Assembly (NCBI GenBank): GCA_964016885.1
Contig: OZ024740.1
Coordinates: 116,250,001-116,314,000 of the forward strand
Direction: 5' to 3'
Origin: Eledone cirrhosa
Taxonomy: Eukaryota
DNA length: 64,000 nucleotides
The notes beneath the pieces are model-generated. The model saw only the letters and a program-made list of their open reading frames with translations. It was not told the origin of the DNA and did not search any database. A program made the translations under genes and the position numbers. This document shows positions 4,101 through 62,504 of the stretch, piece by piece. Numbering within the stretch: the stretch's first letter is position 1; the number at the start of each line of letters is the position of its first letter.

Positions 4101-4840
4101 GGTTAATAGGTCTCCCACTATCATTGTTCAATTCATCTACCACTAAGTTTAGGATATCTACCAAATCTTGTCCTAGCCCGTCAGCATTCATCTCCTCAGT
4201 GGCCGTATCTCTGTTCCAGGTATTATTTATCTCAGCATTCAGATCATTGTCTGTTTCGGGTGGTTCCTCCGTTCTCTCGACCTCTTCACCTTCATTTCCC
4301 ACTGGCTCGTTTGCCTGGCATACTCCACCCTCCATCTCCAAGCTAATCTCTCTGCCCAGTTCCTCCAGTTCCAGCTCGCTTATCCACGCATTAGTTCTTA
4401 TTACCCGAGCCTGCCTGGCCAGTTTTTGTTCATCTAATTTAAATGGACCAATCTCGTTCCAGATGTTATGCATCCTTTTCCTATAGCCTTTACCCTTGGG
4501 GTTACTCTTCAGGTAACATTGCATAACAGTTCTATTCAATTCTTTCGTCCAGTTGGTTCTGGTCCCTTTCCTTGTTCTTCTTCCTCCGATACCAGCAGTA
4601 TTTGGTTGACAGCCAGGTCCCTGCTGCTGAGCCAGGGAGCACCTGTTGGGTGAGAGTCTGTCACATGACATTCTAGTCTCCATTTCACCGTTATTCGAAC
4701 TGTTTAGGTTCGACATTTAAACACTCTTATCGAGGATTGGCGAATGTATGGTTACATAACCACCGGTGAATTACTTGTCTCCGGTGGTTTCGTCACTCCA
4801 CGTGACTTTTGTGTGGCATTATCACGCTGTAGACGAACCC
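1166..4840 (-). mobile_element. R4/Dong-clade non-LTR retrotransposon, near full length, decayed
   Basis: Single broken ORF with RT and C-terminal CCHC/RLE; 3' UTR ends in (TAA)n at 1166-1190; its 3' part nearly matches the copies at 21950-23330. Confidence 0.9.
1267..4716 (-). pseudogene. R4/Dong RT-RLE polyprotein, frameshifted into ORFs 4716-4036, 3978-3694, 3615-3238, 3287-1776, 1842-1267
   Basis: KSPGPDG, WIDYKKAFDMVPH, IFQGDSLSP, HLLFMDD, YKYLG; CRICG..ETVHHIVSEC; RHD; RPDLVV..DVACP..EKINRY. Confidence 0.9.
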
Positions 4841-5047
4841 AAACAAACAAACAAACAGGCAGAAAAAAACCCCAAAATGAATAAGCATAAGTTTCATTGT
4901 AATGTAGTGTTTGAATGTCTGACTTAGTTTTTCCCTTCCCTTCTCTGTCCGTCCGTTTGTTTTTCTCTTCATTTTTATTTCCTTTACGTTTTCGTTCGTT
5001 GTTGCTGTGCTGCTTTGATTTTTATTTATTTTTTTTTTTTTTTTAAT

Positions 5048-6349
5048 TTTGACCGGGTCATCAATTCAGTCTATTTATATATTTTGATGTTTTCCTCTTT
5101 TAGTGGGAATTCTACAATTTAGCAGCGGATAGCGGGAGAGAATAGCGGCGGTAGTGATACTGAGGCAGCGGCGGGAGGGGGGGGGGGCTGTGCTAGCAGC
5201 AACTAGCAGGAGGTAGTGGGAGGGAATAGCGGCGGTAGCGATAGTGAGGAAGCGGTGGTGGTGATGTGGTCGTATTACTGTAGTGATGGTGTTGAAGTTA
5301 GAGTAGAAATTTGAGTCGACTTGACCAGAGTTTTCATCGTGGTAGTGGTGGTGGTATTGGTGGTGAAATTATCTTTAGTGAAATTATCGTTAGTCGCGTA
5401 TATGTGTTGACATTTACCCATAATATTGGGGTTAAACATTTTGTTAAAACTAAAACTTGATTTAGATTATTGTTTTTTTTTTATTTTTATTTTGATCGGG
5501 TCATCAGTTCAGTCTATTTATATATTTCGATGTTTTCCTCTTTTAGTGAGAATTCTACAATGTAGCAGGGGGTAGCGGGAGAGAATAGCGGCGGTAGTGA
5601 TATTGAGGCAGCGGCGGCGGTGGCGGTGCTGTGCTAGCAGCAACTAGCAGGAGGTAGTGGGAGAGAATAGCGGCGGTAGCGATAGTGAGGCAGCTGTGGT
5701 GGTGATGTGGTCGTATTACTGTAGTGATGGTGTTGAAGTTGGAGTAGAAATTTGAGTCGACTTGACCAGAGTTTTCATCGTGGTAGTGGTGGTGGTATTG
5801 GTGGTGAAATTATCTTTAGTGAAATTATCGTTAGTCGCGTATATGCGTTGACATTTACCCATAATATTGGAATTAAACATTTTGTTAAAACTAAAACTTG
5901 ATTTTGATTATTGTTTTTTTTTTTTGTTTTTTTTTTATTTTGATCGGGTCATCAATTCAGTCTATTTATATATTTCGATGTTTTCCTCTTTTAGTGAGAA
6001 TTCTACAATGTAGTAGGGGCTAGCGGGAGAGAATAGCGGCGGTAGTGATATTGAGGCAGCGGCGGCGGTGGCGGTGCTGTGCTAGCAGCAACTAGCTGGA
6101 GGTAGTGGGAGAGAATAGCGGCGGTAGCGATAGTGAGGCAGCGGTGGTGGTGATGTGGTCGTATTACTGTAGTGATGGTGTTGAAGTTGGAGTAGAAATT
6201 TGAGTCGACTTGACCAGAGTTTTCATCGTGGTAGTGGTGGTGGTATTGGTGGTGAAATTATCTTTAGTGAAATTATCGTTAGTCGCGTGTATGTGTTGAC
6301 ATTTACCCATATTATTGGAATTAAACATTTTGTTAAAACTAAAACTTGA
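5048..6349. repeat. ~445-bp tandem repeat x3
   Basis: Units begin TTTGA(C/T)CGGGTCATCA at 5048, 5491 and 5938; highly similar bodies. Confidence 0.9.
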
Positions 6350-6806: not shown

Positions 6807-7014
6807 GGCGACCTACGTAGTAAATCGTATCATCGTGAGCTCCGCAAAGGTTTGTTATTTCCGTTTGTTAAAAATTGCCATTTATGGAACATTTTTATTG
6901 TTAACTATATATAAGCGCACATACATTGTTTTCCGAAAAGGACACCCAAAAAGATTGGGGCCTTGTGCCCAAAATTTAAACTTTTATGATTATCAAAAAA
7001 TTTCTTTTAAAAAA

Positions 7015-8992
7015 ATGGCTAATTCACCTCTGCACCAAGCAGCTGAAAGCCTTCCTCACAAATTAACACCTCACACCGACACCACCATTGTAAATGTTAC
7101 TACGTTTGCCAACACTAAAAAAAAGATAAGCAGTAGCAATATTTTAAATTTGTCTCAGGCAGACATTCATTTCCCGCCATTACCAATGACTGCAGGTGTT
7201 AAAGCCGCCACCACCACCACCACCACCGCGACAACCACCACCCCCACCACCACCGCGACAACAGAAACAAAAGGAAAAAAAATATCAACTCGTGATGTCC
7301 TAATATTTTCAACCAAAATGGACTCTCCCAAACCGACTTTCAATGACGTCACCACCACCACAACTGAAACTAAAATTAATAATAACAAAAATAACGATAG
7401 CAACAACATCAACAATGACATTAAAAAAACCACCCTGAGTTTTGCCAGAGTAGCAAAACAGTTCGAAGCATTTACGGTAACTCAGGAGGATTTAGAAAAT
7501 GGCAAACAAATGGTAAAGAAAGATGGGTACAGGGTCAGCCCGCCCCCCCTCCCCCACCTAATAAAATGGAGCATCGGCGCCTATGCACCGTGTCGTATCG
7601 AACAATAAATGTAAAATCGCGCCGAGTGGAACGGGCATCCGAGTCCCAAATCCAAAAAGCTTTGGGACATGTGTGGGCAATAAAAACCCACATCAGACGT
7701 GGGCAGAAGTATGGAACCGTGGACGTGTTCTTTGAAACACCAGAGGAGGCTAGAGAACACTCCATGGCCCCATTAAGAAGTGACGACTTCACACTCGTCC
7801 CAAGCTATTGTGGCCAGAGACTCGTAAAGATCACGTTCCACCGGCCATCGAAATTCCCTGGCTAATAGCGGCCGTCCTCACCGGCATCGAAGCCAACAAA
7901 GATAATAGCAATAGCAAAAGAAAAGCAGAAGAACTGGTCCGGATCTGGGATGGAGCTCCTGATCCAAGCGGACCAAAAAAGCATTGAGGAGATCCCAGAG
8001 GTAATAGACCTCACTGACGGCAGCCACCTCACAGTAATTGTCGAGGGCAGAAGGCCTAGGTGTGTCGTTTGTGGTGAAGGAACCCACCTAAGGGATTTCT
8101 GCCCTCAGGCTAAAAGGTTGAGGCCACCTCTCCTACCCACCCCAGTGACACAACCATCAACACCACCAGTAGCAGAGATGGCAGCAAAAACTGTAGGAGC
8201 AACAACAGAAGCAACTATAACAGCAACAACCCCAGCAACAGTAGCAAAACCAACACCACCACCACCAGCAAAACCAACACCACCACCACCCAACGCTTCA
8301 GAACTAGCACCAGCGCCTACACCATCCACCACGCCACAACCAAAACTAACGCCTGTGGAGGATTTTCCACTCCCCGGCCTATCACAACTGGAGACAGATT
8401 GTGACGACGAGGAGTGAGAAACGGTATCAGGAAAAAAAAAAGAAACCAAAAAAGAAAAAATTCTCTTCCTTCCCCCTCCAAAAACAAAATACAGAGGGAA
8501 ACAAATAAATTAACAAACAAAAAAGTTAGGACAGATATGCCACCATCCACACCAGCATCACCAATCCCATCAACCCAAACACCAACACCATCATTAACCC
8601 CAACACCACCATCACCTACACCACAAAAGTCACCAAAATGCGAAACAGAAACAAACCCACAACAAACGCAAACAAAACAAAACAACCAAAACGATACACA
8701 CTACACAGCATTAAATTTGAACAACAAGCAATTATTACACTACATCCAACACAACACCAGCATCACAGAAAAAGACTACACAACAACCCAAAATTCCACA
8801 CCACCTCCACACATTCAAATCACTCGCATCACACAGAAAACGTACATGACACTAAAACAAAAATTCCCCAAAGACATCGGAGACTTCCGACAAGCACTCT
8901 CCAGGAGGATTTATAAGGACATCCTTCCTGAGGAGGCCACAAGCAGTGAAAAGGATGGAAAAACCTTCCTTCCCCCACGAGAAGTAAGGTAA
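7015..8992 (+). pseudogene. Tx1 ORF1 (gag-like, CX2CX4HX4C knuckle, Pro/Thr-rich), frameshifted
   Basis: VIVEGRRPRCVVCGEGTHLRDFCP in ORF 7950..8417; split across several ORFs directly upstream of ORF2. Confidence 0.7.
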
Positions 8993-9026
8993 GTGGTCTT
9001 TCCCATCTTTTCCACTCCTTTTCAAC

Positions 9027-12000
9027 ATGACCTCACTCAGAATAGGCAGCATAAATGCGCGTGGCTTGGGGTCGTCATGGAAGCAGGGCCACCTGCTCAA
9101 CGACCTCAGGTCACTAAACATAGATGTAGTGGCCATCAGCGAGACCAGAATCTCCAAAGCACGGGCCTTCGCACCGATCTTCGGCGGCTACGATGTGTAC
9201 GCATCTCCCAGCCGTCCGGGATCGGGGGGAGGAGTTGCTGTGCTTTTTCGGAGAGGTTTGGATCTTGCCCAGAAGGTAAGTTGGTGGTGCTGGACGTGAC
9301 TAGCGGAGAAGGGCGGCATGATTTCTTCCGGCGTCTGGAGACCTTTCTTGGAACGTCCCGCTCTTTAGTGTTAGTGGGCGACTGGAACGGGATCTTAGAT
9401 GCACGCTGGGATTGTGTGGGATTAGTGGATAGGGAAGGAGGGTGCAAGAGTCTCACCAACCTGCTCAGGCGTGTTGAACTGTCTGACAGGTACCGAATGG
9501 ATTTCCCGAATGTACCAATGTGGACTTGGACAAATCGCATAGGGTCATCCAGATCATATCTAGATAGAGTATTTTGTAGGGAAATAGATAGGTCTAGCAT
9601 AGGCTGTGCACAATTCAAGATAGTCAGCTACACGGACCACAAATTCGTGATCTGTGTGCTTGACTTAGATAGGCTTCATAGACGAGGACCCGGCTACTGG
9701 AAGCTAAACGCGTCCTTACCAGCGCGCAAGGCCTACAGAGACCGGATTAGCGAACTAGTTAAGCGGGCGTTGACGGGGGCCATCGTCAACAACAAGTGAT
9801 GGTTTGCTCTGAAAAGAGCAATTAGAATAGAGTCCATTAGGTTTAGTAAGGCTTTAGCAATAGAGAAAAATAGAGCAGAGGGAGAATTAGTTAGAAAATT
9901 AGACGAGGCGCTTAGCAAAGGCATTGCGACCGACGTGCTTGCGGCGAAATTAGCCCTTGACCAATTCTTCAATGCAAAGCACGAAGGCTGCGTTGTCAGA
10001 GCTAGGGTGCGTGCTCTCAGACACGAGGGGACGAAAGCCGTTCAATGGGCCCGAGTGGCGGAGGCGCGTCGTGGCAATAAAGCCACGATCCGGTCTTTGG
10101 TGGACCACGACGGGCGCATGCTACTCGATCCCGGGCAAATGTGTGAAGCTTTTCAGCGACACTTCGTTCAACTGTTCGGGGGCAGTGGCGGGCCGGATCG
10201 AGGGATGGACTTTAGTGTCTACCTCGATGGACTGCCGCGGCTTTCGGCCACTGAGGCGGAGTGTTGCAAAAAGCCGATAACAACCGCTGAAGTACGGGAG
10301 GCAATGACTGGCTGCACAAGGGGTAAATCGCCTGGTTTAGATGGTCTGCCCTATGAACTTTACGTACAAATGCCAGACTTTTTCGGAGGCCTCTTGGCGG
10401 ACGTCTACTGCAACTGGCAACAGAACGGGAGAATTCCCAGCTCTGTGAGCCGAGGAGCGGTGGCGCTGCTGAGAAAGTATGAGAACAAGGGGGATAACAT
10501 AGATAATTTTAGGCCCATAACTCTGCTAAACACAGAGTTCAAGATTTTGGCCAACGTGCTAGCAAAGAGGTTGGCGCTTGTCGTTGGTGGTTTGGTGGCA
10601 GAGGCACAGACATGCGCCATTCCCGACAGATCCATCCACGACAACCTCCACCTCATGCGATACATCGTAGAGAGGGTAGCTAGGGAACCTGGCACGGATG
10701 GGTCTTTGATCAATTTAGATCAGTCGAAAGCCTTCGATAGGGTCGACCATCGTTACCTAGCGGCAGTCCTGAGGGCGGCTGGCTTTGGGCCCGTCTTCAG
10801 AGGCTGGATCGCTGCCATGCACAGCGACATCTGCTCTGTAGTGAGAGTGAACGGTCACCTTTCGGAACCGTTTAACATCATGCGCTCGGTCCGCCAAGGA
10901 TGTCCCCTCTCGTCCCTCTTGTACGTATTGACTCTCGAGCCATTACTGCACAAACTGGAGACGTTGAGGGGAGTCCCGCGCGAACTACGATGCGGAAGAT
11001 CCGTGTCAGCATATGCGGACGATGTCACCGTAGTGGTGTCGAACGCCAAACACATCGAGGCGATCGGCACTACACTAAGAGAATACGAAGCGGTGACAGG
11101 AGCAATGATCAACCAGGAAAAGTCAGTGGGCCTGCAGCTCGTCACCTGGAGAGGCAGGTCCATGCCGTCCAACAGCGTCGTCGGGCGCTGGACGGACGGA
11201 CCGGTTAAATTGCTAGGGGTCTGGTTCGGTCCAGACCTCCAGACGGACAAAAACTGGGACGAGGTGACGAGCAGGGTGGCTTCTCTCACCCAGAAATGGG
11301 CGGAGAGGAAGCTATCCCTGAAAGGTCGAGCGGAGGTGGCTAACGCGTACATCGCGTCCGTCATCTACTACCGCCTGACCGTCGTACCTTGTCCTAAGCC
11401 CCGCCTGACTGCGCTGGAGCGTTTGCTCTTTCGCTTTTTGTGGAAGGGACGTGCTCCGATGGTCAGGCGGTCCATCTGTTGTCAACACCCGCTACGTGGA
11501 GGGCTGGGTATGCCGTGGCTGATGATGCGCAGGCACGCGCTCAGGCTACGACATCTCCACCTCTTCCTCGACGGTGATCAGGTGTGGTCGCCGTTTGCTA
11601 GACACGTTTTTCCCCAGCTCGTCTCCTTGACGGAGCTGCAGTCCTGGGTCAAGCGAAGACCAAGAGGGAGCGCCTGGAGACTGGAATGTCTTCAGGCGCT
11701 CACAGCCCTCGACCAATCGGGCAATGTGATCGGTGGAAACTCCACCTCGGCGTTCTATAGAGGATTAGTGGAGGGTAAGAGCGACGACGTACTTGGGGAA
11801 ACTCTAGGCGTCGACGAAAATCAACTAGCCAATCTCTTCGGAAGAACTTTCGGGCCAGGGCCTATGGACAACTTCCAGAAATCTCTGGCTTGGCAGTGCT
11901 ACCGAGGAACCTTGCCAGTTCGGTATAAACTCTACAGGCATGGAGGTGCCGTCAGCCGGGCATGTCCGAGATGCGCGCAGGGCGACGAAACCGTCCTGCA

Positions 12001-12380
12001 CGCACTCGTCCAGTGTCCGAAAATTGCTGACTTGTGGGTTTATGTCGAACACCTGCTGTCGCGTTTAGGACGGATCCAGCTATCAGCTGAGTCCATCGTG
12101 AGGATTGCCCCGCCCTCCTCCTTTTGCCGGGAAGGGCAGGCAGTTTTTATCTGTCTGGTGGCCATGGCGAAAGAGATAGTATGGTGGACACGTTTGAAAG
12201 GGCTGAAGACGAACACTTACCTCTTCGGTGATGCTCTGATTGACTTTTTCAAATTTCATTTGAAAAGGAAAATCAGGGTAGAGAGGGAAGTGCTCTCTTC
12301 CCAGCATTTTGTTGAAAGATGGGTGAGATAAGCAAAAATGGCCCGAGTGAATGAGCCTACTCTGAGTATATATCTGTAAA
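9027..12380 (+). pseudogene. Tx1 ORF2 (AP endonuclease + reverse transcriptase + C-terminal zinc motif)
   Basis: SINARGL..VAISETR, GDWN, SYLDRVF, TDH, YWKLN; KSPGLDG, DQSKAFDRVDH, RQGCPLS, AYADD; CPRC..ETVLHALVQC; frameshift ~9270, in-frame stops at 9797 and 12329. Confidence 0.92.
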
Positions 12381-12627
12381 TTAAAGGTGGAAAACTGGGA
12401 GAGGGCACTTGCCTTGGTGGTCAGGGTCATTGTGGCTTTTTACTGGGCTTTCTCCACAAATGTCCCTCCGAAGTCTCCCCCCTATTGGGGAATTTTTCAT
12501 TGTTATTTTTTGTTACATCCTCTGTTTTTGTTTTTACACGCAGAAATGCCCATTTGTACCGTCCTGCATTGTCCTGCACTGTCCTTAATGTCTACTTTAT
12601 GTAAACCCTTGTGGTTAATAAAGAAAA

Positions 12628-12658
<31 letters not shown>

Positions 12659-12728
12659 GTTATTATTATTATTATTATCATTAAAATATCGGAGGCCACC
12701 ATCAGTTGATTCAGGTTTATTTAAAACT

Positions 12729-12787
12729 CCGATATACATATTTCACTGAAGACTATCAGTTATGATAGCCTGAGCTCTTCGGACGGC
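12729..12787 (-). ncRNA. Type I hammerhead ribozyme motif (family A, left arm, CCGAAGA variant)
   Basis: Reverse complement: ccgt-CCGAAGA-gctcaggctatc..gatagtcttcagt-GAAA-tatgta-TA-tcgg. Confidence 0.6.
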
Positions 12788-12910
12788 AAAACCTATAATA
12801 ACTTAAAAACACCACACGGTCAGCAGTTCCTGTGTGTCAATTAAAGACATTTTTTAAATTTAAAAATTGTTTTGAGGAATTTTCAATGTTTTCAAGTTTT
12901 ATAGGTATGG

Positions 12911-12976
12911 CTGTCTGAAGAGCTCAGGGTATCAGGGTATAATAATTGATAGTCCTTAGTGAAATATGTATAACAG
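12911..12976 (+). ncRNA. Type I hammerhead ribozyme motif (family A, right arm)
   Basis: ctgt-CTGAAGA-gctcagg..ccttagt-GAAA-tatgta-TA-acag. Confidence 0.75.
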
Positions 12977-12999
12977 AGTTTTAAATAAACCTGAATCAA

Positions 13000-13084
<85 letters not shown>

Positions 13085-13087
<3 letters not shown>

Positions 13088-13268
13088 AACGAGTAGGACC
13101 CCGACGGCTGTGCTCAAGCCGTTTCGACGGCTAACAGAATTAGCCGTCGAAACGGCTTGAGCTCAGCCGTCGGGGTCCTACTCGTTCCTATTACCCACTC
13201 TACTACCCTAAGTATTGAGTACTTTGGTGCGTTATGGTCCGCCTGGTTCCTTACCACATTTCCTTCGT
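13085..13268. mobile_element. Family B short element with fold-back palindrome and HHR 3' half
   Basis: gacggctaa-cagaa-ttagccgtc-GAAA-cggct..agccg-TC-ggggtcc; related copy at 33545-33685. Confidence 0.7.
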
Positions 13269-13354
13269 TATATATATATATATATCAGTTGATTCAGGTT
13301 AAATATATATATATATATATTTCACTAAAGACGTGTATATATATATATATATAT

Positions 13355-14063
13355 ATAAACGGAAAAAATGAAACGAAATTTCATTTCTCACTCTTAGTAC
13401 GGCTGTTACTTAAATATAGGTATGTATACGTACATACATATATGTATACAGACGTACAGTAGTATGTATATATACATACATGCACACATATATATATGTA
13501 CGTATGGTCTCACCTAACATTTATTATAATGCTCGGTGTGTTTGTAAACACATCCATACGTACATATATATATGCATGTATGTATATATATATACTACTG
13601 TAAGTCTGTATACATATATGTATGTAGGTATACATACTTATATTTAAGCAACAGCCGTACTAAGAGTGAGAAATGAAATTTCGTTTCATTTTTTCCGTTT
13701 ATCGTTTTCGGTACCCCGGCCGATTAACTCACTCGATATGCAAATTAGTCTGCTCAGCCGTTAATATGCATAAGGAAAGTATATACTTTCAGACGTTCAA
13801 CCATCTGGTAGGAAGGTATACGTTGCTGACGATAGCTAATAAGCTTGAAACTAGTACAGGGTTCCTTTGTCAGTGTTGAACAAATGAGCAACGATAGTTG
13901 CTAGACACTGTACGGCTTAATTCGGGATGTTTGTTTACAAACACACCGAGCATTATAATAAATGTTCGGTGAATCCATACGTACATATATATATATGTGT
14001 GCATGTATGTATATATACATACTACTGTACGTCTGTATACATATATGTATGTACGTATACATA

Positions 14064-14068
<5 letters not shown>
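13355..14068. mobile_element. Family C ~420-bp HHR element: 1.2 head-to-tail units plus an inverted partial arm
   Basis: Direct repeat 13552 vs 13973; inverted arm 13355-13550; homologous to 53162-53690. Confidence 0.85.
13821..13860 (+). ncRNA. Type I minimal hammerhead ribozyme (family C)
   Basis: cgttg-CTGACGA-t-agct-aata-agct-t-GAAA-ctag-TA-cagg. Confidence 0.75.
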
Positions 14069-14132
<64 letters not shown>

Positions 14133-14308: not shown

Positions 14309-14699
14309 GAGTTGAGATGGAGGTTTTTCTCACATCTGGTTGGTCTTTGAATGTTACTTGTTGTATATGGAAAAAAGTGGCTCGAAAGGCCAGGTTTTTA
14401 GAGAAGTAATTTGATTGGTTGGTCAATAATTATAATAAATTTCGCGCCAGTTCGCGTTACAAAGTTCTTCACAAACAAGGGGGGGGGGGGCTCAGGTTGT
14501 TTTTTCATATATGAGTGTTTGAATTTCTTTTTACTTAAAAAAGGGGGCTCACGATGGCTTTTTTTTAATAAACGTAATTTGATTGGTTATAAATGAAATT
14601 ATCTCTGTCACGTGAACAAGTTTTCATTAAATTTCGCGACCTTATTTGGAAATCTATTCTGTAGCCTTTTTAGAGAATTTTATGACAAGCAAAAGATAA

Positions 14700-15606
14700 T
14701 TATTTCTAATTTAGGCACAAGGCCAGCAATTACCCAGTGCATTACTGGTACTTTATTTTATCGACCCCCTAAGGATGAAAAGCAAAGTCAACCTCGGCGG
14801 GATTTGAACTCAGATCGTAAAGGGACGTAACTATGTTGGAAAGCATGGCGTCCGACCCTCTACCGATACTGCCAATCCACGGCCGACAAGCAAAAGATAA
14901 TGGTCAAGAGAAATGGGATGGGAGAATTGTTCTGGTTCAGTGAATATGGTTAGTTCGCTGGAGAGTCAGAATTCAGATTTTCTTTTGAAATAAAGAATGT
15001 AAAGATATGTATGTTTATTTGTGTGCTTGTGTGTCAGTATCGGTAAAGGGTCGGACACCATGCTTTGACGCATAGATTTACGCCCCTTGCCATTCTGAGT
15101 TCAAATCTCGCCGAGGTTAACTTTGCCTTTCATCCTTGCGGGGTCGATAAAATAAAGTACCAGTAACGTACTATGGTCGATTTACTCGAATTGTTTTCCT
15201 CCAAAATTGTTTGTTTTGTGCCTAAATCGGTAGAAAGTTGGACAGCATAGAGTTACAGCTCTTTACAGTCTGAGTTCAAATCCCGCCGAAGTTAACTTTG
15301 GCTTCATCCTTACGGGGTCGTTAAATTAAAGTACCAGTAATGCACTGGGGTAATTTCTGGCCTTGTGAAAAATGTAGAAGCAATTATTATAGGTGGGTAG
15401 ATTGGCAGCATCGACAGGGCGTAGGACAACATGGTGTGTAGAATAGAGGTACGGCCCTTTACGTTCTGAGTTCAAATCCCTTCGAGGTTAGCTTTGTCTT
15501 TCATCTTTATGAGGTCGATAACGTAAACCACCAGTAATGCACTGGATCGATTTAATCTACTTTCTCCTATCCTCAAATTTGTTGGCTTGTGCCTAAATCA
15601 GAAACT
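14700..15606. mobile_element. Cluster of four copies of an abundant tRNA-derived SINE (one -, three +)
   Basis: Shared GAGTTCAAATCCCGCCGAGG (B-box-like) and TTTCATCCTTACGGGGTCGATAAAATAAAGTACCAGT body. Confidence 0.8.
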
Positions 15607-16277: not shown

Positions 16278-17020
16278 ATTATTAAAAAATTAAAGGTTTG
16301 GGTTGCGAGATTTATTTAATGAAATTACGGAAATTACTGTAATTTCATTACATAAATCTCGCAACCCAAACCTTTAATTTGTTAATAATATTTTAATTTT
16401 TAAATTTAAATTTAAATTTTTAATCCTATAACTCTAAACATAAGTTTAACGTTCCAATTTTTTGTTCACACATTATACCATACATTATATATGCCTCTGT
16501 TAAAATATAGGTTCTTTGGAATAACATTTTTCGCGGCGATTTCTAGCCTGACTGTAGTGTGACCCTTACGCTGACTTTTCTTCTTTCTTTCTTCCTTCTT
16601 TTTTTTTATTCTCTGGCGGAGAGGTGGTAGTACATTATAAGCCTTCGGCCCCTCACCAGATGGCGACTGACCGAGATGAAAGCAGCTAGTTGGTCAGTCG
16701 TCCTCTTTGTCTTTGATTTTCGGACCCATGGATTTTATCTGTTATATTCCTTTGTTATATTTCGAATAGCTGATGATATCACCGGATTCATACGGAACCC
16801 GGTCATTGAAATGATCATAGTATAATAAACCTTTCAAGGATTTACACCAGTCCAGCCTCCTGTTATTTTATTTATAATAATTAACTCCGTATTCGCACCA
16901 CCAACTATACAAACGAAGACGGGTGAGTTGCATTACGTTGAGTAATCTCCATAATATTACATCAAGATTGACCCTACGGAATGACCAATTCTATCCAGTG
17001 GTGAACAAACAAACCTAAAT
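16278..17020 (+). mobile_element. Penelope-like element 3' remnant with short 5' inversion
   Basis: Palindrome 16278-16389; decayed RKLL*FHYIN..FN resembles the PLE GIY-YIG C-terminal motif; downstream HHR; ends at (TA)n. Confidence 0.55.
16766..16823 (+). ncRNA. Type I hammerhead ribozyme motif
   Basis: atag-CTGATGA-..accgg..ccggt..-GAAA-tgatca-TA-gtat. Confidence 0.7.
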
Positions 17021-17106
17021 AAATATATATATATATACATATATATACAGAGAGAGTGTGAGAGAGAGAAAGAGAAGAGAGAGAAAGAGATAGATAGAGA
17101 GAGAGT

Positions 17107-25118: not shown

Positions 25119-25281
25119 TTACGTTTAGACAGCTTAGCAAATTGAAGACAGCGACCGATAGGCGAGCCGCAGTGACCAAAGCGACGGGTTTCCCGAGTTC
25201 AGTTTTTTTTTTTCGTCGCTTTGGTCACTGCGGCTCGCCTATCGGTCGCTGTCTTCAATTTGCAAAGCTGTCTAAACGTAA
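25119..25281. repeat. Inverted repeat with ~68-bp arms (family E)
   Basis: 25119-25186 is the reverse complement of 25214-25281; GAAA-CCCG-TC half-core on the minus strand at the inner edge. Confidence 0.85.
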
Positions 25282-25594
25282 TGTTATTATAACTCTAAGG
25301 TAATATACCTTATTGAGTGCTTAGCTGCACACCCCGATTGCATTCGTTAGCTTAGCTGCAGCCAGAGCTTCGATTATGCTGTACTAAATTTTGTATATAT
25401 ATATATATATATATATAATAATTAAGTGGGGGTTCTCAGCCGGGGTTTGAACCCCCGGGGAACCCTTTGATTAAAATGAAATATACGCAAGTAATCAAAT
25501 GGACATGAGCCCACACACGCGTCAAGTTTCATCAAGATCGGTTTGGTAGTTTTTGAGTTCTAGGTTCACAAACACACAAACAGAAATTGCCATT

Positions 25595-29885: not shown

Positions 29886-30051
29886 GTTCTTTGCTTAAAC
29901 TTTAATCTGTTCTTATAATAAATATTTTCTCTACGGGATTATATATATATACGTGTGTGTAATAGTAGCTATGGTGCTTCCATAAGCGATATGCCAAAAT
30001 TAGCACTCAATATTCATACAGAGCAGAGTGTGAATAATATAAAAAAACGAA

Positions 30052-30253
30052 AAATCAGTGATGCATCTGGACTCAGTTTATTGCGTGTTACAATTGTTTC
30101 GCCGGCAAGTAGCTCGAGACATGATCACTGTATGGATCTGGCTGATTCTACGGCTGCATGTTCCTTCGGACACATGCAATTCGTTCGGAGCAAATTTTCA
30201 GTGAGAAACAATTGCAACACGCAATAAACTGAGTCCAGATGCATCACTGATTA
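30052..30253. repeat. Inverted repeat (family H) with HHR 3' halves
   Basis: Arms 30052-30100 and 30205-30253; GAAA-caattg-TA/CA-acacgc. Confidence 0.8.
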
Positions 30254-30265
30254 TTCTTTTTATTA

Positions 30266-30323
<58 letters not shown>

Positions 30324-30444: not shown

Positions 30445-30519
30445 ATCACTATATATATTTCGATGGCCCAGCTCCATCATCCAAATATGATGGATGACAG
30501 GACGATCTCATCAGGCAAC
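30445..30519 (-). ncRNA. Type I hammerhead ribozyme motif
   Basis: Reverse complement: gttgc-CTGATGA-gatcgtcc..tccatcat/atgatgga..gggccatc-GAAA-tatata-TA-gtgat. Confidence 0.8.
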
Positions 30520-30984: not shown

Positions 30985-31415
30985 GGCGGAGGAACTCATA
31001 AGAGTCAATGGCCATCCAAAAGTGTGTAAATATGTATATACACATGTACATATGTATGTATATGCGCGGGGACATAGAAATAGTCGGGCTGGACACCCGA
31101 TCGCGTGGTTAAACCACTGGGAGTGAAGGAATTCTAGCCTTTGTCCGGGCATTCTTCTAGGAGAAGGCAACTCAAGAAACTGGGATAACTTCGATATAAA
31201 ACCTGCGGCCCAGTAGTTACCGATGATGTTGATCTTTTCTTCTTTTCGGGTTATAGCTACTGTCGCTCAGAGAGTGGGATTGGCTCAGTGCACAGTCTTT
31301 CCTCACTTTAAATAATATCTTCACGCACAGGCATTGCACGATAGAATTAATTAATAATTATTAATATTGGTATATCGTGCAATGGCCATACTCGATAACG
31401 AGGGGGCAGCCATCA
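30985..31415 (+). mobile_element. Non-autonomous RTE-derived element flanked by (TATG)n
   Basis: TCTAGGAGAAGGCAACTC RTE 5'-UTR-like motif; homologous to 54675-55280. Confidence 0.6.
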
Positions 31416-32055: not shown

Positions 32056-33021
32056 GCATATGTATATGTACGTACAAACACACATATACACGCAGATACA
32101 CACATGAATACATAAATACACACATGTATGCACGCATGTACGTATATGTACGTGTATGTTATGTTTGTATGTGTACATATATATATATATGTATGTATGC
32201 ATATGTATATGTAGCATACATGTGCGTATTTATGTATGCATGTGTGTATGTGCGTGTTATTAAACCTTGTTATCTTTCATTTGTGGCCCCTAAAAGCCCC
32301 TATACCCTGTTGCACCTCAGCTTTCCCTAATTTCACCTGTTTTCGTCATTTGTTACTTGTCACACACCACACACACCACTAAACACATCTACTACACACA
32401 CACACACTATATCATACACATATAGTTACATAAATGCATACATATACACTATATACATACATACGTGCTTGCAAACATACATACATAAATGTATATATAC
32501 ACACATACACACACTTACATTTACACACATTTACATACGTACACTTACATTTACACACATATACACACGCACACACACGCGCATCATAGACACAAGGGCC
32601 TACGGCAGTTTAGCTCGGTTGTGCCAGCTATGTAAGGTATTTCAATCGTCCCAGCTATGTACTATATCACTTCTGGCGATATATTAAAGTCACTACTGCT
32701 GCTTTCCTGTCGCTAGACCTTTGTTGCTACTCTTTTTACTTACTGCCACTGCAACTAGTGCTGCTGCTGCTGCTGCTGTTGTTGTTGTTGTTACTCTCTC
32801 TGTGAAAGGCCTTTGGACACATACACACACACATATATATATATGTGTGTGTGTATACACATACGTATACTTATCTATCTATCTATCTATGTATATATAT
32901 ATATGTAAGTATGTATGTATGTATACGTACATACATATACGTATACATACATACATACTTACATTTAAGTAAGTGCCGTACTAAGAGTGAGAAATGAAAT
33001 TTCGTTTCATTCTATTCCATC

Positions 33022-33101
<80 letters not shown>

Positions 33102-33226
33102 GGAGATGAGTTTTATTGTAGTACAATAAAGCAATGCAGATATCGCATAAGAAGCACTCTACAGTTTGTAGGACTGGAGTATACATAATATATAAGAACA
33201 AAAGATGGTTAAAAGAGTTCCATGTA

Positions 33227-33293
33227 TTTTATTATGCGCATTTCAAAAACAAATATCATCATGCAATAATATTTGTGTTTTCATCAGATAAAA
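33227..33293 (-). ncRNA. Type I hammerhead ribozyme (family K)
   Basis: Reverse complement: ttttat-CTGATGA-long stem II-GAAA-tgcgca-TA-ataaaa. Confidence 0.88.
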
Positions 33294-33418
33294 CAGGAAA
33301 ACATGATATGAAGGTTAAAAAACACTTGTGGATAGTGCAGTTTTAATATATGTTGATATGTTGATTTAAAACTGCACTATCCACAAGTGTTTTTTAACCT
33401 TCATATCATGTCTTCCTG

Positions 33419-33485
33419 TTTTATCTGATGAAAACACAAATATTATTGCATGATGATATTTGTTTTTGAAATGCGCATAATAAAA
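33419..33485 (+). ncRNA. Type I hammerhead ribozyme (family K)
   Basis: ttttat-CTGATGA-aaacacaaatattat..atgatatttgttttt-GAAA-tgcgca-TA-ataaaa. Confidence 0.88.
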
Positions 33486-33544
33486 TACATGGAACTCTTT
33501 TAACCATCTTTTGTTCTTATATATTATATATATATATATATATA

Positions 33545-33685
33545 TCGAAGGAAGTGTGGTAAGGAACCAGATGGACCATAACGCACCAGAGTACTCGATA
33601 CTTATGGTAGTAGAGTGGGTAATAGGAAAAGAGTCAGGACCCCTACGGCTGAGCTCCGGCCGTAGGGGTCCTGACTCTTTTCCTC
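33545..33685 (-). mobile_element. Family B copy with fold-back palindrome
   Basis: Reverse complement of 13155-13268; palindrome aggaaaagagtcaggacccctacggc..gccgtaggggtcctgactcttttcct. Confidence 0.75.
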
Positions 33686-33870
33686 TCTCCATATATATAT
33701 ATAATATATATAGAAATGCGCAACCGGTAAAAACTTAAAACAAAAACTGAATACTAACCAATACTTATTACTAATTTATACTTATTCCTAATTAAACTAT
33801 TTTTCACTGGGAAAAATTTGTCAGCATTTTCTTTTCCTTTTACTAATATATCACAACTCGTGTGTTACAC

Positions 33871-33983
<113 letters not shown>

Positions 33984-33987
33984 ATAT

Positions 33988-34243
33988 AGAATAAGGAAAA
34001 GCGAAGTAGTTTCAGATGTTCAAGCCCTAATAATGCTGTGATATATATTTCAATGGCGAAAGTGGCCACACTGTTCTGGGCGCCAGTCTCGCGATATCGT
34101 CAGACAGCTTGTTACATAAAAGGTTATGTTTCCGAGGCAATCCAAATTGAATCGACATGGTGGCCACTTTCACCATTGAAATATATCACAGCATTATTAA
34201 TAAAGGACTTGAACATCTGAAACTACTTCGCTTTTCCTTATTC
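33988..34243. repeat. Inverted repeat (family L)
   Basis: Arms 33988-34069 and 34160-34243. Confidence 0.85.
34035..34108 (-). ncRNA. Type I hammerhead ribozyme (family L)
   Basis: Reverse complement: gctgt-CTGACGA-..gcgagactggc..gccactttcgc..-GAAA-tatata-TC-acagc. Confidence 0.82.
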
Positions 34244-34319
34244 GATATTTACTCCGTCACTCCTATGTGGAATGAGTACATTGAGTGCTTGATTTGAATT
34301 GCATCAATATTTACCCTAA

Positions 34320-34391
<72 letters not shown>

Positions 34392-34604: not shown

Positions 34605-35019
34605 CCCTCTGTCTCTCTTCCTCTCTCTTTCACTATATATATATATATGTGTATGTGTGTGTGTGTGTGTGTGTATTTATACATATATGTTTATACATAC
34701 ACAGCGACTAACCTGACACTTTGAAGTCACTAACACTTTTCTATGCAGAAGATAAAAATTTACACTCTAGATACACGTATTGAGTGTTCATTCCGTTAAG
34801 ATTTGAATGTTTTAAGTACTTTAAGTATTTCATACACACATTGTATTCTTTTATATATATACGTATACACACACAAAAGTATGTGTGTGTGTTAGTAATC
34901 AAAAACAAAGAAGACTAGATATAATTCAATACTTAATTTATATCAATAATTAATCTGTATATATAGAGAGAGAGATTCTTTACTTGTCAGGCCTTGGCTA
35001 TTGGGAGTCGACTAGAAAA

Positions 35020-35548: not shown

Positions 35549-35941
35549 TGTGTATAGATATAAATATATATGTACATATATAATTAAGATTGCTTTTCAG
35601 AAGAGACATGGATCAGAACCACACTCAACTAAGGTATTCAATACATTAGCAGTAAAGGTACATTTTTTTTAAAATATAGAAATGACTTGTACAGGATTAG
35701 AACTGTTTCATTCGATCAGAAATTCAAAAGAATGAAACAGTTCTAATTCTGTAGAAGTAATTTCTATATGAAATGAATATATACATACGGGTAGTGGCAG
35801 TGTCCCAGTATGGGCTCAGCTAGCCAGCTGGAACAGGTAAAAATGTAAAAGAGTCTGCCTCTCTATGTGAGAGTGTGTATATTATATGTAGTTATAACGT
35901 CATTAATTTTGAATTGTTGTTATTATCAATAAATATATTTC

Positions 35942-42763: not shown

Positions 42764-42800
42764 ATATAAGATCAAAAGATGGTTAAAAGAGTTCCAAGTA

Positions 42801-42867
42801 TTTTATTATGCGCATTTCAAAAACAAATATCATCATGATATGATATCTGCGTTTTCATCAGATAAAA
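42801..42867 (-). ncRNA. Type I hammerhead ribozyme (family K variant)
   Basis: Reverse complement: ttttat-CTGATGA-aaacgcagatatcat..atgatatttgttttt-GAAA-tgcgca-TA-ataaaa. Confidence 0.85.
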
Positions 42868-42970
42868 TAGGGATACATGATATGAAGGTTAAAAAACACT
42901 TGTGAATAGTGAAGTTTTAAATCAACATATTTTGCATTGCTTTATTGTGCTACAATAAAACTCACCTCCT

Positions 42971-43021
<51 letters not shown>

Positions 43022-43340: not shown

Positions 43341-43433
43341 TGTTCACATATATATGTATATATACATCGATCTCATTTTATATATATATATATTAAAATA
43401 ACATATTTTAGTCTTCACATTTATTATTGTTAC

Positions 43434-43468
<35 letters not shown>

Positions 43469-46197: not shown

Positions 46198-46277
<80 letters not shown>

Positions 46278-46602
46278 GTAATAATAATAAATTTGAAGAC
46301 TAAAATCCAAAGAGGGCTCGATAAGGATAAATATATATCAAATATATAAGAAGCGTAGAGCAAATATGTGCGCGCGCGTGTATGCGTGTGTGGGTGTGGA
46401 TATGTGTGTGTGTGGGTATGTGTTTCTGTGTGTCTGTTTGTCTGTGTATGTGTACCTATGTATGTATATGTATGTCTTTTTGTGTGTATCTGTATATATA
46501 TATGTCTGTGTATGTATGTGCTTAAAACTTTGACTTCTGTATCGGCTGTAAATGTATTGTCATATGTTAATTATACTTTTAAATTAACACTGATTTACAA
46601 CG

Positions 46603-47716: not shown

Positions 47717-47767
47717 TAAGGTAACATGATATGAGGCCTAAAAACACTTGTCAACAAGAAAGTGTTT

Positions 47768-47855
<88 letters not shown>

Positions 47856-47925
47856 TACACATATATATTTATTAAAATAACATATGTAACCCATGTGCAA
47901 CCACGCAGCACTCAATTCTTCTCAT

Positions 47926-47969
<44 letters not shown>

Positions 47970-48060
47970 ATAATAATAAATTTGAAGACTAAAATCTAAA
48001 GAAAATCCCATTAAGGGTGAAAGCAGCGATTCTTTGCTTAAACTTTAATCTGTTATTTTA

Positions 48061-48114
<54 letters not shown>

Positions 48115-49420: not shown

Positions 49421-49569
<149 letters not shown>

Positions 49570-49599
49570 AACAAAAGATGGTTAAAAGAGTTCCATGTA

Positions 49600-49666
49600 T
49601 TTTATTATGCGCATTTCAAAAACAAATATCATCATGCAATAATATTTGTGTTTTCATCAGATAAAA
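49600..49666 (-). ncRNA. Type I hammerhead ribozyme (family K)
   Basis: Same motif as 33227-33293. Confidence 0.88.
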
Positions 49667-49794
49667 CAGGAGGACATGATATGAAGGTTAAAAAACACTT
49701 GTGGATAGTTCAGTTTTAAATCAACATATTTATATGTTGATTTAAAACTGAACTACGCACAAGTGTTTTTTAACCTTCATATCATGTCCTCCTG

Positions 49795-49861
49795 TTTTAT
49801 CTGATGAAAACACAAATATTATTGCATGATGATATTTGTTTTTGAAATGCGCATAATAAAA
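49795..49861 (+). ncRNA. Type I hammerhead ribozyme (family K)
   Basis: Same motif as 33419-33485; right arm of inverted pair 49565-49990. Confidence 0.88.
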
Positions 49862-50010
49862 TACATGGAACTCTTTTAACCATCTTTTGTTCTTATATAT
49901 TATGTATACTCCAGTCCTACAAACTGTAGAGTGCTTCTTATCCGATATCTGCATTTCTTTATTGTACTACAATAAAACTCACCTCCTACATATATATATA
50001 TATATATATA

Positions 50011-50777: not shown

Positions 50778-51492
50778 CTGTGTCAGTGTGTGACTGTGTC
50801 AGTGTGTGAATGTATGTATGTGTGTGTGGATGCATGATTTAGAAATTAGCTTTGCAGCCAGGTGGTCCTGGTTTTGATCCCACAGTATGACATCTTGAGC
50901 TGGTGTATTTTACAATAGCATGGAAACAAACACACACGGATACACGCTCAAACATACACAGGAGCGCGCGCACACACACACACACACACACTCACACGCA
51001 CACTCATATATTTATTTATTTATTCATAAGCGTTGGTGATCGCCAGAACGAGAATTCTATACCATAGTAGAGATTACTGGTCCAAGGAAACAAGCTACTG
51101 GATCAGCCTTAATAAACTCTATATATAGTGCAGTGTAAAAGGTCTGTGGTGCACACACGCACACTAACATATAACTGGTAGTCGTTCATTATGTCATATT
51201 TGCATCTGCAAATTTCCTCTCTAAGGCGCAGGCCTCTCAACACCAACACTTACCCGAGCATGCCAGTATCTCTTTTCGTCGAGATTGTTCAACGAAAAGG
51301 AAAGGGTTTTATACAGCTCGTCAACAGGTGCAGATCTATGGTCTAGCTAGATATATTAGGATCTTAGATGAGTGTGTGTATGTGTGCCCCTATATATATA
51401 TATAAAGTTTATCCTGGGTTCAATCGGGGGGTAACCACAGTAAGTAAGGTACTCAATACAAAGCAGTGTATAAACGTTTAATATAGAAAAGG

Positions 51493-51536
51493 CTTCTACA
51501 GGACTAGAACTGTTTCACTCGTGAGAAATCATCAGG
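51493..51536 (-). ncRNA. Family G hammerhead, stem I 5' strand lost at the inversion junction
   Basis: Reverse complement CTGATGA-tttc-tcac-gagt-GAAA-cag..ctg-TA-gaag; inverted arm 51541-51583. Confidence 0.65.
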
Positions 51537-51741
51537 TCCTGAATGAAACAGTTCTAGTCCTGCAGAAGCCTTTTCTATATTAAATATATATATATGTACA
51601 TGTGTGTGTGTGTGTGTGTATGTGTGTAAAAGCTGAAACAGCTTGGCGCCGCAGTCTAGATTTTACATATCTTTATTATACCCACTCTGCTTATTCCCAT
51701 GGATCGAGTACTCTCATGATTAGTGGTCTCAGCTCCACAAA

Positions 51742-51789
<48 letters not shown>

Positions 51790-53161
51790 TCATCACACAC
51801 AAACTTTTGTGTGTGATGAGTCTATATCAATATCTAATATATATTTCTAGATACTATTTCATTATTTAGAATCACCAAACCACAACATAAAATCAAATAA
51901 TATTGTTGTTTATTTTCTTTACTCAAACATTTTCCAAATTAACCTATTTATATATAATTATCTACTTTAATTACCACTAATTAGCACTAATTATCAAATT
52001 TACACGGAATGGTAACATTTTCACCTTTTTACTGGAAAGTAAATATTCATCAACAATAGCCAATTTCAATGAAAGTAAAAACAACTCCCGCAAACTGTTG
52101 GCCATATCAAGCGCTCGTTATGTCTCTCTAAAATCTGTCTGGAGAGTACGATACATAGAAAGAGAAACTAAGCTTACTTCAATGGTAGATGAAGAAACCA
52201 GATCTTAAATAGGTCTCAATGTTAATCATGGGCAGGACTCAATGTAATAACGATGAACAGGAATAAATGGAGGAAATATTGTTCATGACATTTTATACAC
52301 TGCTGTAAGCGGAAATAACGATTTGGCATAGTAAATAATGAATATTCAGTTATAGTCTGGTCGGTATGAAATACTGGAGAGGAAATTTATATTTTTAATC
52401 TTAGTCAAAGAAAAAAACGCAGAGTACTTTACCCTTTCCCGGCTTTATGGGACTAGTGACAGGGCTGAACGTATTTTCAGAGTGGAAACCGTACCAAAAT
52501 ATTTGGAACGGCGCTTAGCCTGTTAAAGGTATCCGAAAATATGACTAAATCACTCAAATGCGATGCCTCAGCATGGTCGCAGTCTAATGACTGAAACCAG
52601 TAGAAGAGTAAAGTATGTGCGCGCGTGTGTGTGAGAGAGAGAGAGAGAGAGAGAGTCGGGATTCTGCACAATTTCTGCTTATCAATTTTGCTTACAAGGC
52701 ATCGGTCGACCGAGTGTGCAGTGTCGATCAGTAGCAGTAGCGAAGCGAAAGTCTTAATCACATAGTTATACCTAATCACTCCTTCCAAAAAACTGCGTGG
52801 CATTATACCTCACTTAGAAAACATATTGTTTGCTCAATATATAGATAGAAGAGTTAAAGACTAAACTATGTTTCCATTTCGGATACCATCTGCCGGTCAC
52901 AATTCCTAGTAGAAAAAGGTGGAACACATATAATTCGGTCAGTTACTACAAAGTAACTCGCCCGACAAATGAACAAGAGGACAAAACCATTAATGCAGAG
53001 AACGGTCAGCAATACCCACTGCATCTGCCATTCCACCCCGCGGGGCTCGTTTCTCAGGCGTGATGCCCACCTATCGATTTGGCGGGGGAAAACAGCAGTA
53101 GCCCGGATACCAAGAATTTGTTTTGTTAATCTTGGCATTTATTAGAGGAAATTATATATAT

Positions 53162-53687
53162 ATAAACGGAAAAAATGAAACGAAATTTCATTTCCCACTC
53201 TTAGTACGGCTGTTACTTAAATATAAGTATGTACACGTACATACATGTATGTATACAGACGTACAGTAGTATGTATATATATATATACATACATGCACAC
53301 ATATATATATGTACGTATGGATTCACCGAACATTTATTATAATGCTCGGTGTGTTTGTAAACAAGCATCCCGTATTAAGCCGTAGTGTCCAGCAACCATC
53401 GTTGCTCGTTTGTTCAACACTGACAAAGGAACGCTGTACTAGTTTCAAGCTTATTAGCTATCGTCAGCAACGTATACCTTCCTGCCAGATTGTTGAACGT
53501 ATATACTTACCTTATGCATATTAACGAGTGAGCCCAATTTGCATATCGAGTGGGTTAATCGGCCGGGTGCACCGAAAACAATAAACGGAAAAAATGAAAC
53601 GAAATTTCATTTCCCACTCTTAGTACGGCTGTTACTTAAATATAAGTATGCACACGTACATACATATATGTATACAGACGTACAGTA

Positions 53688-53690
<3 letters not shown>
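53162..53690 (-). mobile_element. Family C ~420-bp HHR element, 1.26 head-to-tail units in (TA)n
   Basis: ATAAACGGAAAAAATGAAACG at 53162 and 53581 (period 419). Confidence 0.88.
53431..53473 (-). ncRNA. Type I minimal hammerhead ribozyme (family C, intact)
   Basis: Reverse complement: acgttg-CTGACGA-t-agct-aata-agct-t-GAAA-ctag-TA-cagcgt. Confidence 0.85.
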
Positions 53691-53744
<54 letters not shown>

Positions 53745-54019
53745 CACATATATTTTTATTTGTTTGACCCGAATTACTTGGTCGTTTTTATGGTTGTGCA
53801 GATGATTGTTTAACCATCGTCTCAGTGCTTGGCCTTTAACGTATGTTGTAGCTCTGGTTCATCTGAATCATTGAGCGCTTGCCACACATCTCGGAAGTTG
53901 TTTTTCGTTAATTCCTAAGCCGAAATACGATTCTCGCTAATTTATATTTGTATATATATATATATATATAATCCATGTATATATATATATAACATGTATG
54001 CGTGTATGTATGTATGTAT

Positions 54020-62304: not shown

Positions 62305-62504
62305 NNNNNNNNNNNNNNNNNNNNNNNNNNNNNNNNNNNNNNNNNNNNNNNNNNNNNNNNNNNNNNNNNNNNNNNNNNNNNNNNNNNNNNNNNNNNNNNN
62401 NNNNNNNNNNNNNNNNNNNNNNNNNNNNNNNNNNNNNNNNNNNNNNNNNNNNNNNNNNNNNNNNNNNNNNNNNNNNNNNNNNNNNNNNNNNNNNNNNNNN
62501 NNNN
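62305..62504. other. Assembly gap (200 N)
   Basis: Run of N. Confidence 1.

Follow-up and report, generated by a model that had tools for sequence, protein, structure and literature searches.

Why do short repeats bearing hammerhead ribozyme motifs lie in this DNA as inverted pairs, with the 3' ends of both arms pointing outward into (TA)n? The question recurs across the window (the whole 64-kb stretch of DNA that was analysed), which is AT-rich, eukaryotic and rich in microsatellites and contains LINE-type ORFs, read by eye. We located the inverted structures by self-comparison of the window, and our counts cover the window and one comparison of sequencing data with a single arm. The preliminary description had attributed the layout to the (TA)n tract itself. 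We find that the reported orientation is real and already known. What is new and testable, as a detail of a known kind of element, is a one-sided tail combined with a shared hairpin where the second start lies.

One such pair, of the family labelled K, is built as follows:

33022–33098, no strand: (TA)n run adjoining the distal 3' end of the left arm of K; a solo C copy, which ends at 33024, shares it
33099–33346, minus strand: long K arm with hammerhead, internal (proximal) end site and tail (alignment of the arms)
33099–33180, minus strand: K tail of 82 nt, missing in the right arm (comparison of the arms)
33156–33180, minus strand: tail hairpin, in the order ACTC, stem, loop, stem, 2-nt bulge, GAGT (hairpin descriptor, alignment and folding)
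33233–33295, minus strand: predicted type I hammerhead of the left arm, core start 33287, bounds approximate (descriptor)
33347–33365, plus strand: centre, made of the 5' end of the right arm and a short tandem duplication, part of the tail-less arm (alignment)
33356–33527, plus strand: short K arm, from the 5' hotspot to an internal TA-like end, without tail (alignment)
33417–33487, plus strand: predicted type I hammerhead of the right arm, core 33425–33431, with palindromic stem III (descriptor)

The two arms, 33099–33346 and 33356–33527, are identical at 165 of 167 aligned bases, and their hammerhead cores lie at 33287 (minus) and 33425 (plus), the right-arm ribozyme having a predicted cut after 33479. 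On its 5' side the long arm ends 10 nt before the 5' breakpoint hotspot. The right arm extends 10 nt beyond the left in the 5' direction and bears the short duplication. The remaining contiguous pairs are listed below:

12701–13003, both strands: A pair, head-to-head, with 99/110 identical positions between the arms
13086–13268, both strands: B pair whose right arm bears the tail; its centre falls within a hairpin that we read as hammerhead stem II
13355–14069, both strands: C pair, tail of 59 nt on the left arm with no hairpin found in it; the right arm is a partial tandem, reaches further 5' and has no tail
25119–25393, both strands: E pair whose right arm has the tail, hairpin included (alignment and hairpin descriptor)
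29955–30266, both strands: H pair whose left arm has the tail, hairpin included (alignment and hairpin descriptor)
33547–33690, both strands: B pair whose left arm bears the tail; its centre coincides with the loop of the palindromic stem III
33989–34320, both strands: L pair, full hammerhead on the tail-less left arm, tail on the right arm (descriptor and alignment)
35585–35769, both strands: G pair, tail with a degenerate hairpin on the left arm (alignment)
42768–42972, both strands: non-overlapping K pair, a tail-less minus arm to the 5' hotspot and a tail-only plus piece, with 4 nt of microhomology at the junction
43393–43436, both strands: non-overlapping F mini pair, absent from the preliminary description (alignment)
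47967–48064, both strands: non-overlapping F pair, a tail-only minus piece and a tail-less plus arm, with about 5 nt of microhomology at the junction
49567–49989, both strands: K pair whose right arm bears the tail and whose two arms both attain the 5' hotspot
51404–51586, both strands: G pair, tail on the left arm (alignment)

All 13 pairs described at the outset are present with the polarity given for them, left arm minus and right arm plus, and the added F pair at 43393–43436 has the same polarity. Contiguous inverted pairs are thus head-to-head, with 3' ends outward, in 14/14 cases from 9 families (P = 0.0001 at 50:50, or about 0.004 if the 9 families are counted, by hand arithmetic); palindromes at 16278–16389, 31332–31384 and 51787–51822 were left out of this count, none of them having a usable sense marker. 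The claim of no opposite case holds for contiguous pairs, but the A copy at 12887–13004 (plus) faces another at 13290–13334 (minus), tail-to-tail, across TA runs and a B pair, most likely as two separate insertions. Other parts of the initial account stood in part. By eye, TA begins within about 10 nt of 25 of the 28 outer ends, the exceptions being the left end of A, the right end at G 35769 and the right end at K 42972; a ribozyme is present in both arms of A (with a mutated left core), K 33098 and K 49565 but not of the remaining pairs; and most pairs overlap into palindromes, but the arms of K 42770 and F 47966 are non-overlapping parts of their families. Arms within pairs diverge by 1–10%, and their flanks are unmirrored. 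Because any target-primed inversion gives 3' ends outward, orientation alone picks no mechanism.

Several arrangements around the pairs deserve mention in their own right. At 12701–14128 and 32845–34379, different families follow one another in chains that share (TA)n runs, with neighbouring families facing tail-to-tail, which suggests repeated insertion into one tract. In the A fragment at 13290–13334 (minus), an expanded TA run has replaced the palindromic stem III and the part downstream of it. A tail motif on the minus strand is joined to the F proximal end at 47866–47930, with a polarity that misfits a simple head-to-head pair; a solo K copy at 47730–47770 ends in an 8-bp mini fold-back and then (TA)n; and the palindrome at 51787–51822 is TA-flanked, with an outward-facing TGATGA-like word.

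What are these repeats? Our type I hammerhead descriptor found 10 exact-core motifs in the 64-kb window and none in each of 10 shuffles, so that, judged by sequence, the predicted hammerheads are real; the calls rest on this descriptor of our own, since Rfam at gathering thresholds gave 0 matches in the 64 kb. A full type I motif marks sense in K, A, L, C and one solo G copy, a half comprising GAAA and stem III (by eye) marks it in B, H and E, and the tail hairpin alone does so in F, in which no hammerhead was found. The predicted type I hammerheads of the terminal repeat have a short palindromic stem III. Solo hammerhead-like motifs of three more families lie near TA runs at 30514, 30889 and 36436 (all minus), and such families number a dozen or more in the window. 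The pairs are real head-to-head stumps of Penelope-like elements (PLEs), and we infer that a PLE enzyme moves these families. Copies of these families in the window have no ORF. By eye, no PLE protein was recognised among the 64 ORFs of at least 120 aa in the window, nor was an ORF linking a PLE reverse transcriptase to a GIY-YIG endonuclease, the mark of an autonomous partner, found there. We considered, and did not adopt, the tail as the beginning of a PLE ORF. One reading frame crosses the hairpin without a stop in K, B and G and meets a stop shortly downstream of the hairpin in L, H and E; one protein search with the 43-residue K tail frame, a weak test, returned no homologue. Neither metagenome contigs nor viral contigs matched a 21-nt K motif (0 in each set).

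The head-to-head layout itself has already been described. It is the commonest PLE arrangement, for which self-priming on an antisense template has been proposed (Arkhipova 2013, PMC3846280), and Craig 2021 (PMC8557442) reports an inverted 5'-truncated copy, a tail that is often one-ended and a (TA)n bias, while calling the mechanism unresolved. The endonuclease-bearing (EN+) PLE insertions in these two sources share with ours the head-to-head inverted 5'-truncated copy, the one-ended tail, the (TA)n target bias, partial tandems (here in C) and hammerheads in the repeat. They differ in that published tails measure 30–40 nt, compared with 59–111 nt here, and in the lack of an ORF in our copies; a hairpin common to several families and non-overlapping pairs, both seen here, are absent from the published descriptions in the parts of PMC3846280 and PMC8557442 available to us. 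Minimal hammerheads and opposite-strand pairs of them are also known (Cervera 2014, PMC4209133): retrozymes and PLE minimal hammerheads (PMC4209133; 10.64898/2026.07.22.740005) are, like our families, short, non-coding and equipped with type I hammerheads with palindromic stem III, and in Schistosoma opposite-strand hammerhead pairs lie 100–700 bp apart (same two sources). Retrozymes, unlike our families, form a tandem array with two complete hammerheads; among our hits there was no same-strand tandem of two complete hammerheads, C being a partial tandem with one. A C element of this partial tandem form lies at 53153–53730 (minus); it is retrozyme-like, bears one hammerhead and repeats at about 428 nt.

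The tail provides a handle on mechanism that orientation does not. In 13/13 testable pairs exactly one arm carries a tail, 59–111 nt long, and the other arm ends 59–111 nt short, at an internal site specific to the family; the A pair was left out because its left arm runs on for 21 nt and then meets (ATT)n. The expectation that both outer ends are the same 3' end therefore fails, since one arm of each testable pair is without the 59–111-nt tail. Whether the tail falls on the left or the right is patternless, and centres, arm lengths and tail side vary between copies within K, B, G and F.

The arms also differ at their 5' ends. In 7/13 pairs (K 33099, K 42768, C, L, E, F 43393 and F 47967) the tail-less arm reaches further 5' than the tailed one, the place of E among them depending on its spacer being read via the hammerhead half. 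Four pairs are nested (B 33547, both G and H) and two symmetric (K 49567 and B 13086), so that a second arm lying fully inside the first is compatible with 6/13 pairs and violated in 7/13. Three of the seven have non-overlapping arms with 4–5 nt of microhomology at the junction, each with a substitution in or adjoining the microhomology; across all pairs, two inverted non-overlapping pieces with an internal deletion and junction microhomology occur in 3/14, and the others overlap. Since seven of the 13 pairs are not a copy of one arm, the geometry supports priming from both sides of a break. A tail-only F copy at 46277–46370 (minus) stops at the proximal site, as expected if a distal copy halts where the second one starts.

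Beside the internal site lies a bulged hairpin, RCTC...YY-GAGY, common to seven otherwise unrelated families, in which GAGY pairs with the upstream RCTC, the bulge is 2 nt long and the inner stem is variable. The short arm ends 2–9 nt upstream of the hairpin base in 11/12 pairs (three offsets were re-read by eye), the exception being one G pair at 18 nt. The word ATYGAGTRCY is common to the tails of B, E, G, H and L, with variants in K and F, and has 11 matches in the window against 1.0 expected, a number reached in 0/100 shuffles; the hairpin descriptor has 17 matches against 2.6 in 100 shuffles of the window. In an alignment of 16 copies (15 distinct), 88% of cells are paired, against 10–49% in slid registers; both sides have changed in 5/8 base pairs of the hairpin, F having G-C where the others have A-U, and the covariation score was attained by 0/500 shuffles. 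The descriptor was drawn from the copies it scored, which makes the descriptor and covariation tests partly circular; the counts include related copies, and row E is misaligned in the covariation alignment. The position of the short-arm ends lends independent support, as do two clean copies outside the defining set, at about 16885 and 53851, which belong to other families. Folding is weak (z of -0.2 to -2.2), the exact hairpin being the minimum-energy structure in 4/7 tested and B favouring another fold. A covariance model recovered the 16 training copies and five weak hits (E 0.28–4.1), of which those at 35630 and 16868 are plausible, and at E up to 5 it missed the copies at 53851 and 34766. 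Three more solo families with the tail hairpin lie at 16770–17025, 53741–53945 and 34700–34830 (all plus), the one at 34766 being imperfect and the first having also a hammerhead-like core at 16770. No description of a shared PLE tail hairpin was found in the mostly open-access literature searched.

We lean, with a little more than even confidence, towards programmed twin priming from two fixed sites by a PLE reverse transcriptase-endonuclease that copies hammerhead-bearing end modules. The enzyme would nick both strands of a (TA)n run; because the target is symmetric, both strands are presumably equally good substrates, and the symmetry may raise the rate of inversion. One nick would prime at the distal start, which is the end of the tail, and the other at the proximal start, which lies, by position, 2–9 nt upstream of the bulged hairpin, where the conserved hairpin may keep the enzyme on the RNA. 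Both cDNAs would then extend toward the RNA 5' end and be joined by end-joining or short microhomology, a scheme in which every product is head-to-head and has a tail on one arm only, which is the pattern observed. Where the distal enzyme stalls inside the tail, non-overlapping arms would result, as may have happened in three cases; where it reads through RNA already copied, it would leave a palindrome; the PLE reverse transcriptase is not known to have an RNase H. One RNA may serve both arms, and a few nucleotides of TA pairing would adjust the exact start and not set it. More tentatively, and at less than even confidence, we propose that the bulged RCTC/GAGY hairpin is the enzyme binding site that fixes the second start, with a dimer writing both arms from one RNA.

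Biochemistry of a related enzyme bears on programmed twin priming. PAc, from the Poseidon PLE of Anolis, cuts and extends both strands in vitro, uses two internal starts flanking the tail, depends on RNA downstream of the start, primes at RNA sites non-homologous to the cut DNA and is modelled as a dimer (Frangieh 2024, PMC11167929). Our pairs likewise have two 3' ends bounding the tail and, on the twin-priming reading, an internal start downstream of the hammerhead and extension of both strands. The PAc start sits in an AC-rich stem-loop (PMC11167929). PAc differs in having been studied in vitro with an autonomous element, and the main text of that source draws no link to inverted insertions. 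Twin or dual priming of L1 (PMC2837659, PMC11702581) likewise yields two inverted cDNA pieces with 3' ends outward and, as in three of our pairs, an internal deletion with junction microhomology. The L1 internal site is variable and set by microhomology, whereas here it is fixed per family beside the hairpin; also unlike L1, most of our pairs overlap into palindromes, there is no poly(A), and target duplications are illegible in (TA)n. In the eel LINE UnaL2 and its SINE (PMC1636434), a 3' hairpin with an internal loop is a cis-element for the enzyme, to which the tail hairpin may be likened by analogy only, UnaL2 being a LINE system. We found no paper on PLE mechanism that combined Penelope with twin priming in the literature searched.

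How the PLE layout forms is posed as an open problem in PMC8557442, and the sole printed proposal that we found is self-priming on an antisense template (PMC3846280). The window offers a structural test between models, through nested versus non-nested arms and the side of the tail, and the tail hairpin is a candidate cis-element that could be mutated in the existing PAc-type assay. If programmed twin priming is true, the two start sites of reverse transcription in vitro would be tied to inverted insertions in genomes, and one hairpin would account for the tail, the inverted pLTR (the PLE terminal repeat) and the use of one enzyme by many unrelated short families.

The strongest alternative is that one cDNA snaps back at a hairpin or at its ATAT end and copies itself; either copying of the second arm would halt at the tail hairpin, or an endonuclease would trim the tail from one arm of a hairpin intermediate. 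Self-priming is in print (Arkhipova 2013, PMC3846280), as is endonuclease resolution of the tail (Craig 2021, PMC8557442); the 6/13 nested or symmetric pairs fit equally well, both B centres fall on natural hairpins or palindromes of the element, and the arms of one K pair share locus-specific bases. Yet plain fold-back cannot give the seven pairs with private sequence in each arm unless trimming removes the tail, tail-less TA ends are common in the reads, and PAc directly shows internal starts on RNA (PMC11167929). As a general account we regard it as possible but unlikely; it may well be the source of some nested pairs.

We consider improbable the dual priming first put forward, in which the two ends of a break in (TA)n both anneal to the 3' terminus of a TA-ended RNA. 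Its premise of priming from both sides is favoured by the seven of 13 non-copy pairs and by extension of both strands by PAc in vitro (PMC11167929), and 25/28 outer ends do lie in TA. Its specific prediction, annealing of both ends to the same TA-ending 3' terminus, is contradicted by the arms themselves, which share a 3' end in 0/13 testable pairs, and no TA-ended RNA was seen. Alternating TA overlaps the short-arm end only modestly: the mean over families is 2.6 nt where 1.4 would be expected (P = 0.03; by pair, P = 0.001), and in 4/14 pairs the overlap is 0–1 nt. Head-to-head inverted pLTRs occur in a rotifer with ordinary target duplications of 8–10 bp (PMC3846280), and since PAc also primes without homology (PMC11167929), a (TA)n primer is unneeded. 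TA pairing may tune the exact start without explaining its place; TA-complementarity is not supported as the explanation, and the best reading of (TA)n is as a symmetric target, not a cause.

Mobile palindromic units, such as MITE-like DNA transposons or hairpin RNAs that insert into (TA)n, would also have inverted ends in TA flanks, and arm lengths are similar in K 33099 and K 49567; but copies of one family vary in centre, arm length and tail side, some copies are solo or non-overlapping, and the arms bear hammerheads, which leaves this account very improbable. Least credible of all is an assembly or library fold-back artefact, for although the centre of the K 33099 locus is nearly without read support, arms differ by 1–10%, the flanking DNA shows no mirror symmetry, the breakpoints in 9 families coincide with features of the element, and opposite-strand K joints occur in raw reads of two other samples.

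The read evidence comes from four of 23 listed runs, compared with 33096–33362 at 85% likeness. Two contig sets from one sample, perhaps the source of the assembly and so not independent, gave 3,909 and 3,851 contigs, and two raw-read runs from two other samples with the same species label gave 5,107 and 5,754 reads, numbers that make K a large family. TA loose ends occur at 33097 and at 33180–33200 in contigs and raw reads alike, which indicates that both K 3' ends are family-wide. Among four joints listed, from reduced-representation libraries, three change strand, linking 33129, 33192 and 33232 to 33346, each with 1–3 read starts; we judge them head-to-head from their geometry, as so little reference lies beyond 33346, and none of the joints listed was tail-to-tail, at low power. 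At the centre of the 33022–33546 locus the last bin has a depth of 1 in the two raw-read runs and 0 in the two contig sets, and no piece among those listed spans the 33096–33362 stretch; an insertion-free allele was not seen either. RNA runs are absent from the 23 listed as carrying K sequence. A strictly fixed K 5' end was considered and rejected: reads continue beyond the hotspot, and the few letters that follow it are often identical, so that K may form one terminus of a longer element.

Elsewhere the window holds a 448-bp unit repeated three times in tandem at about 94% likeness (5014–6349), an assembly gap of 200 bases (62305–62504) and an abundant SINE-like family in both orientations (14692–15600 and many other places), whose copies include near inverted pairs without hammerheads. 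Judged from their ORFs, read by eye, 6810–12683 (plus), between (ATT)n runs, is presumably a degraded LINE of L1/Tx1-like type, and 1267–4716 (minus) presumably a degraded LINE of the restriction-like-endonuclease type.
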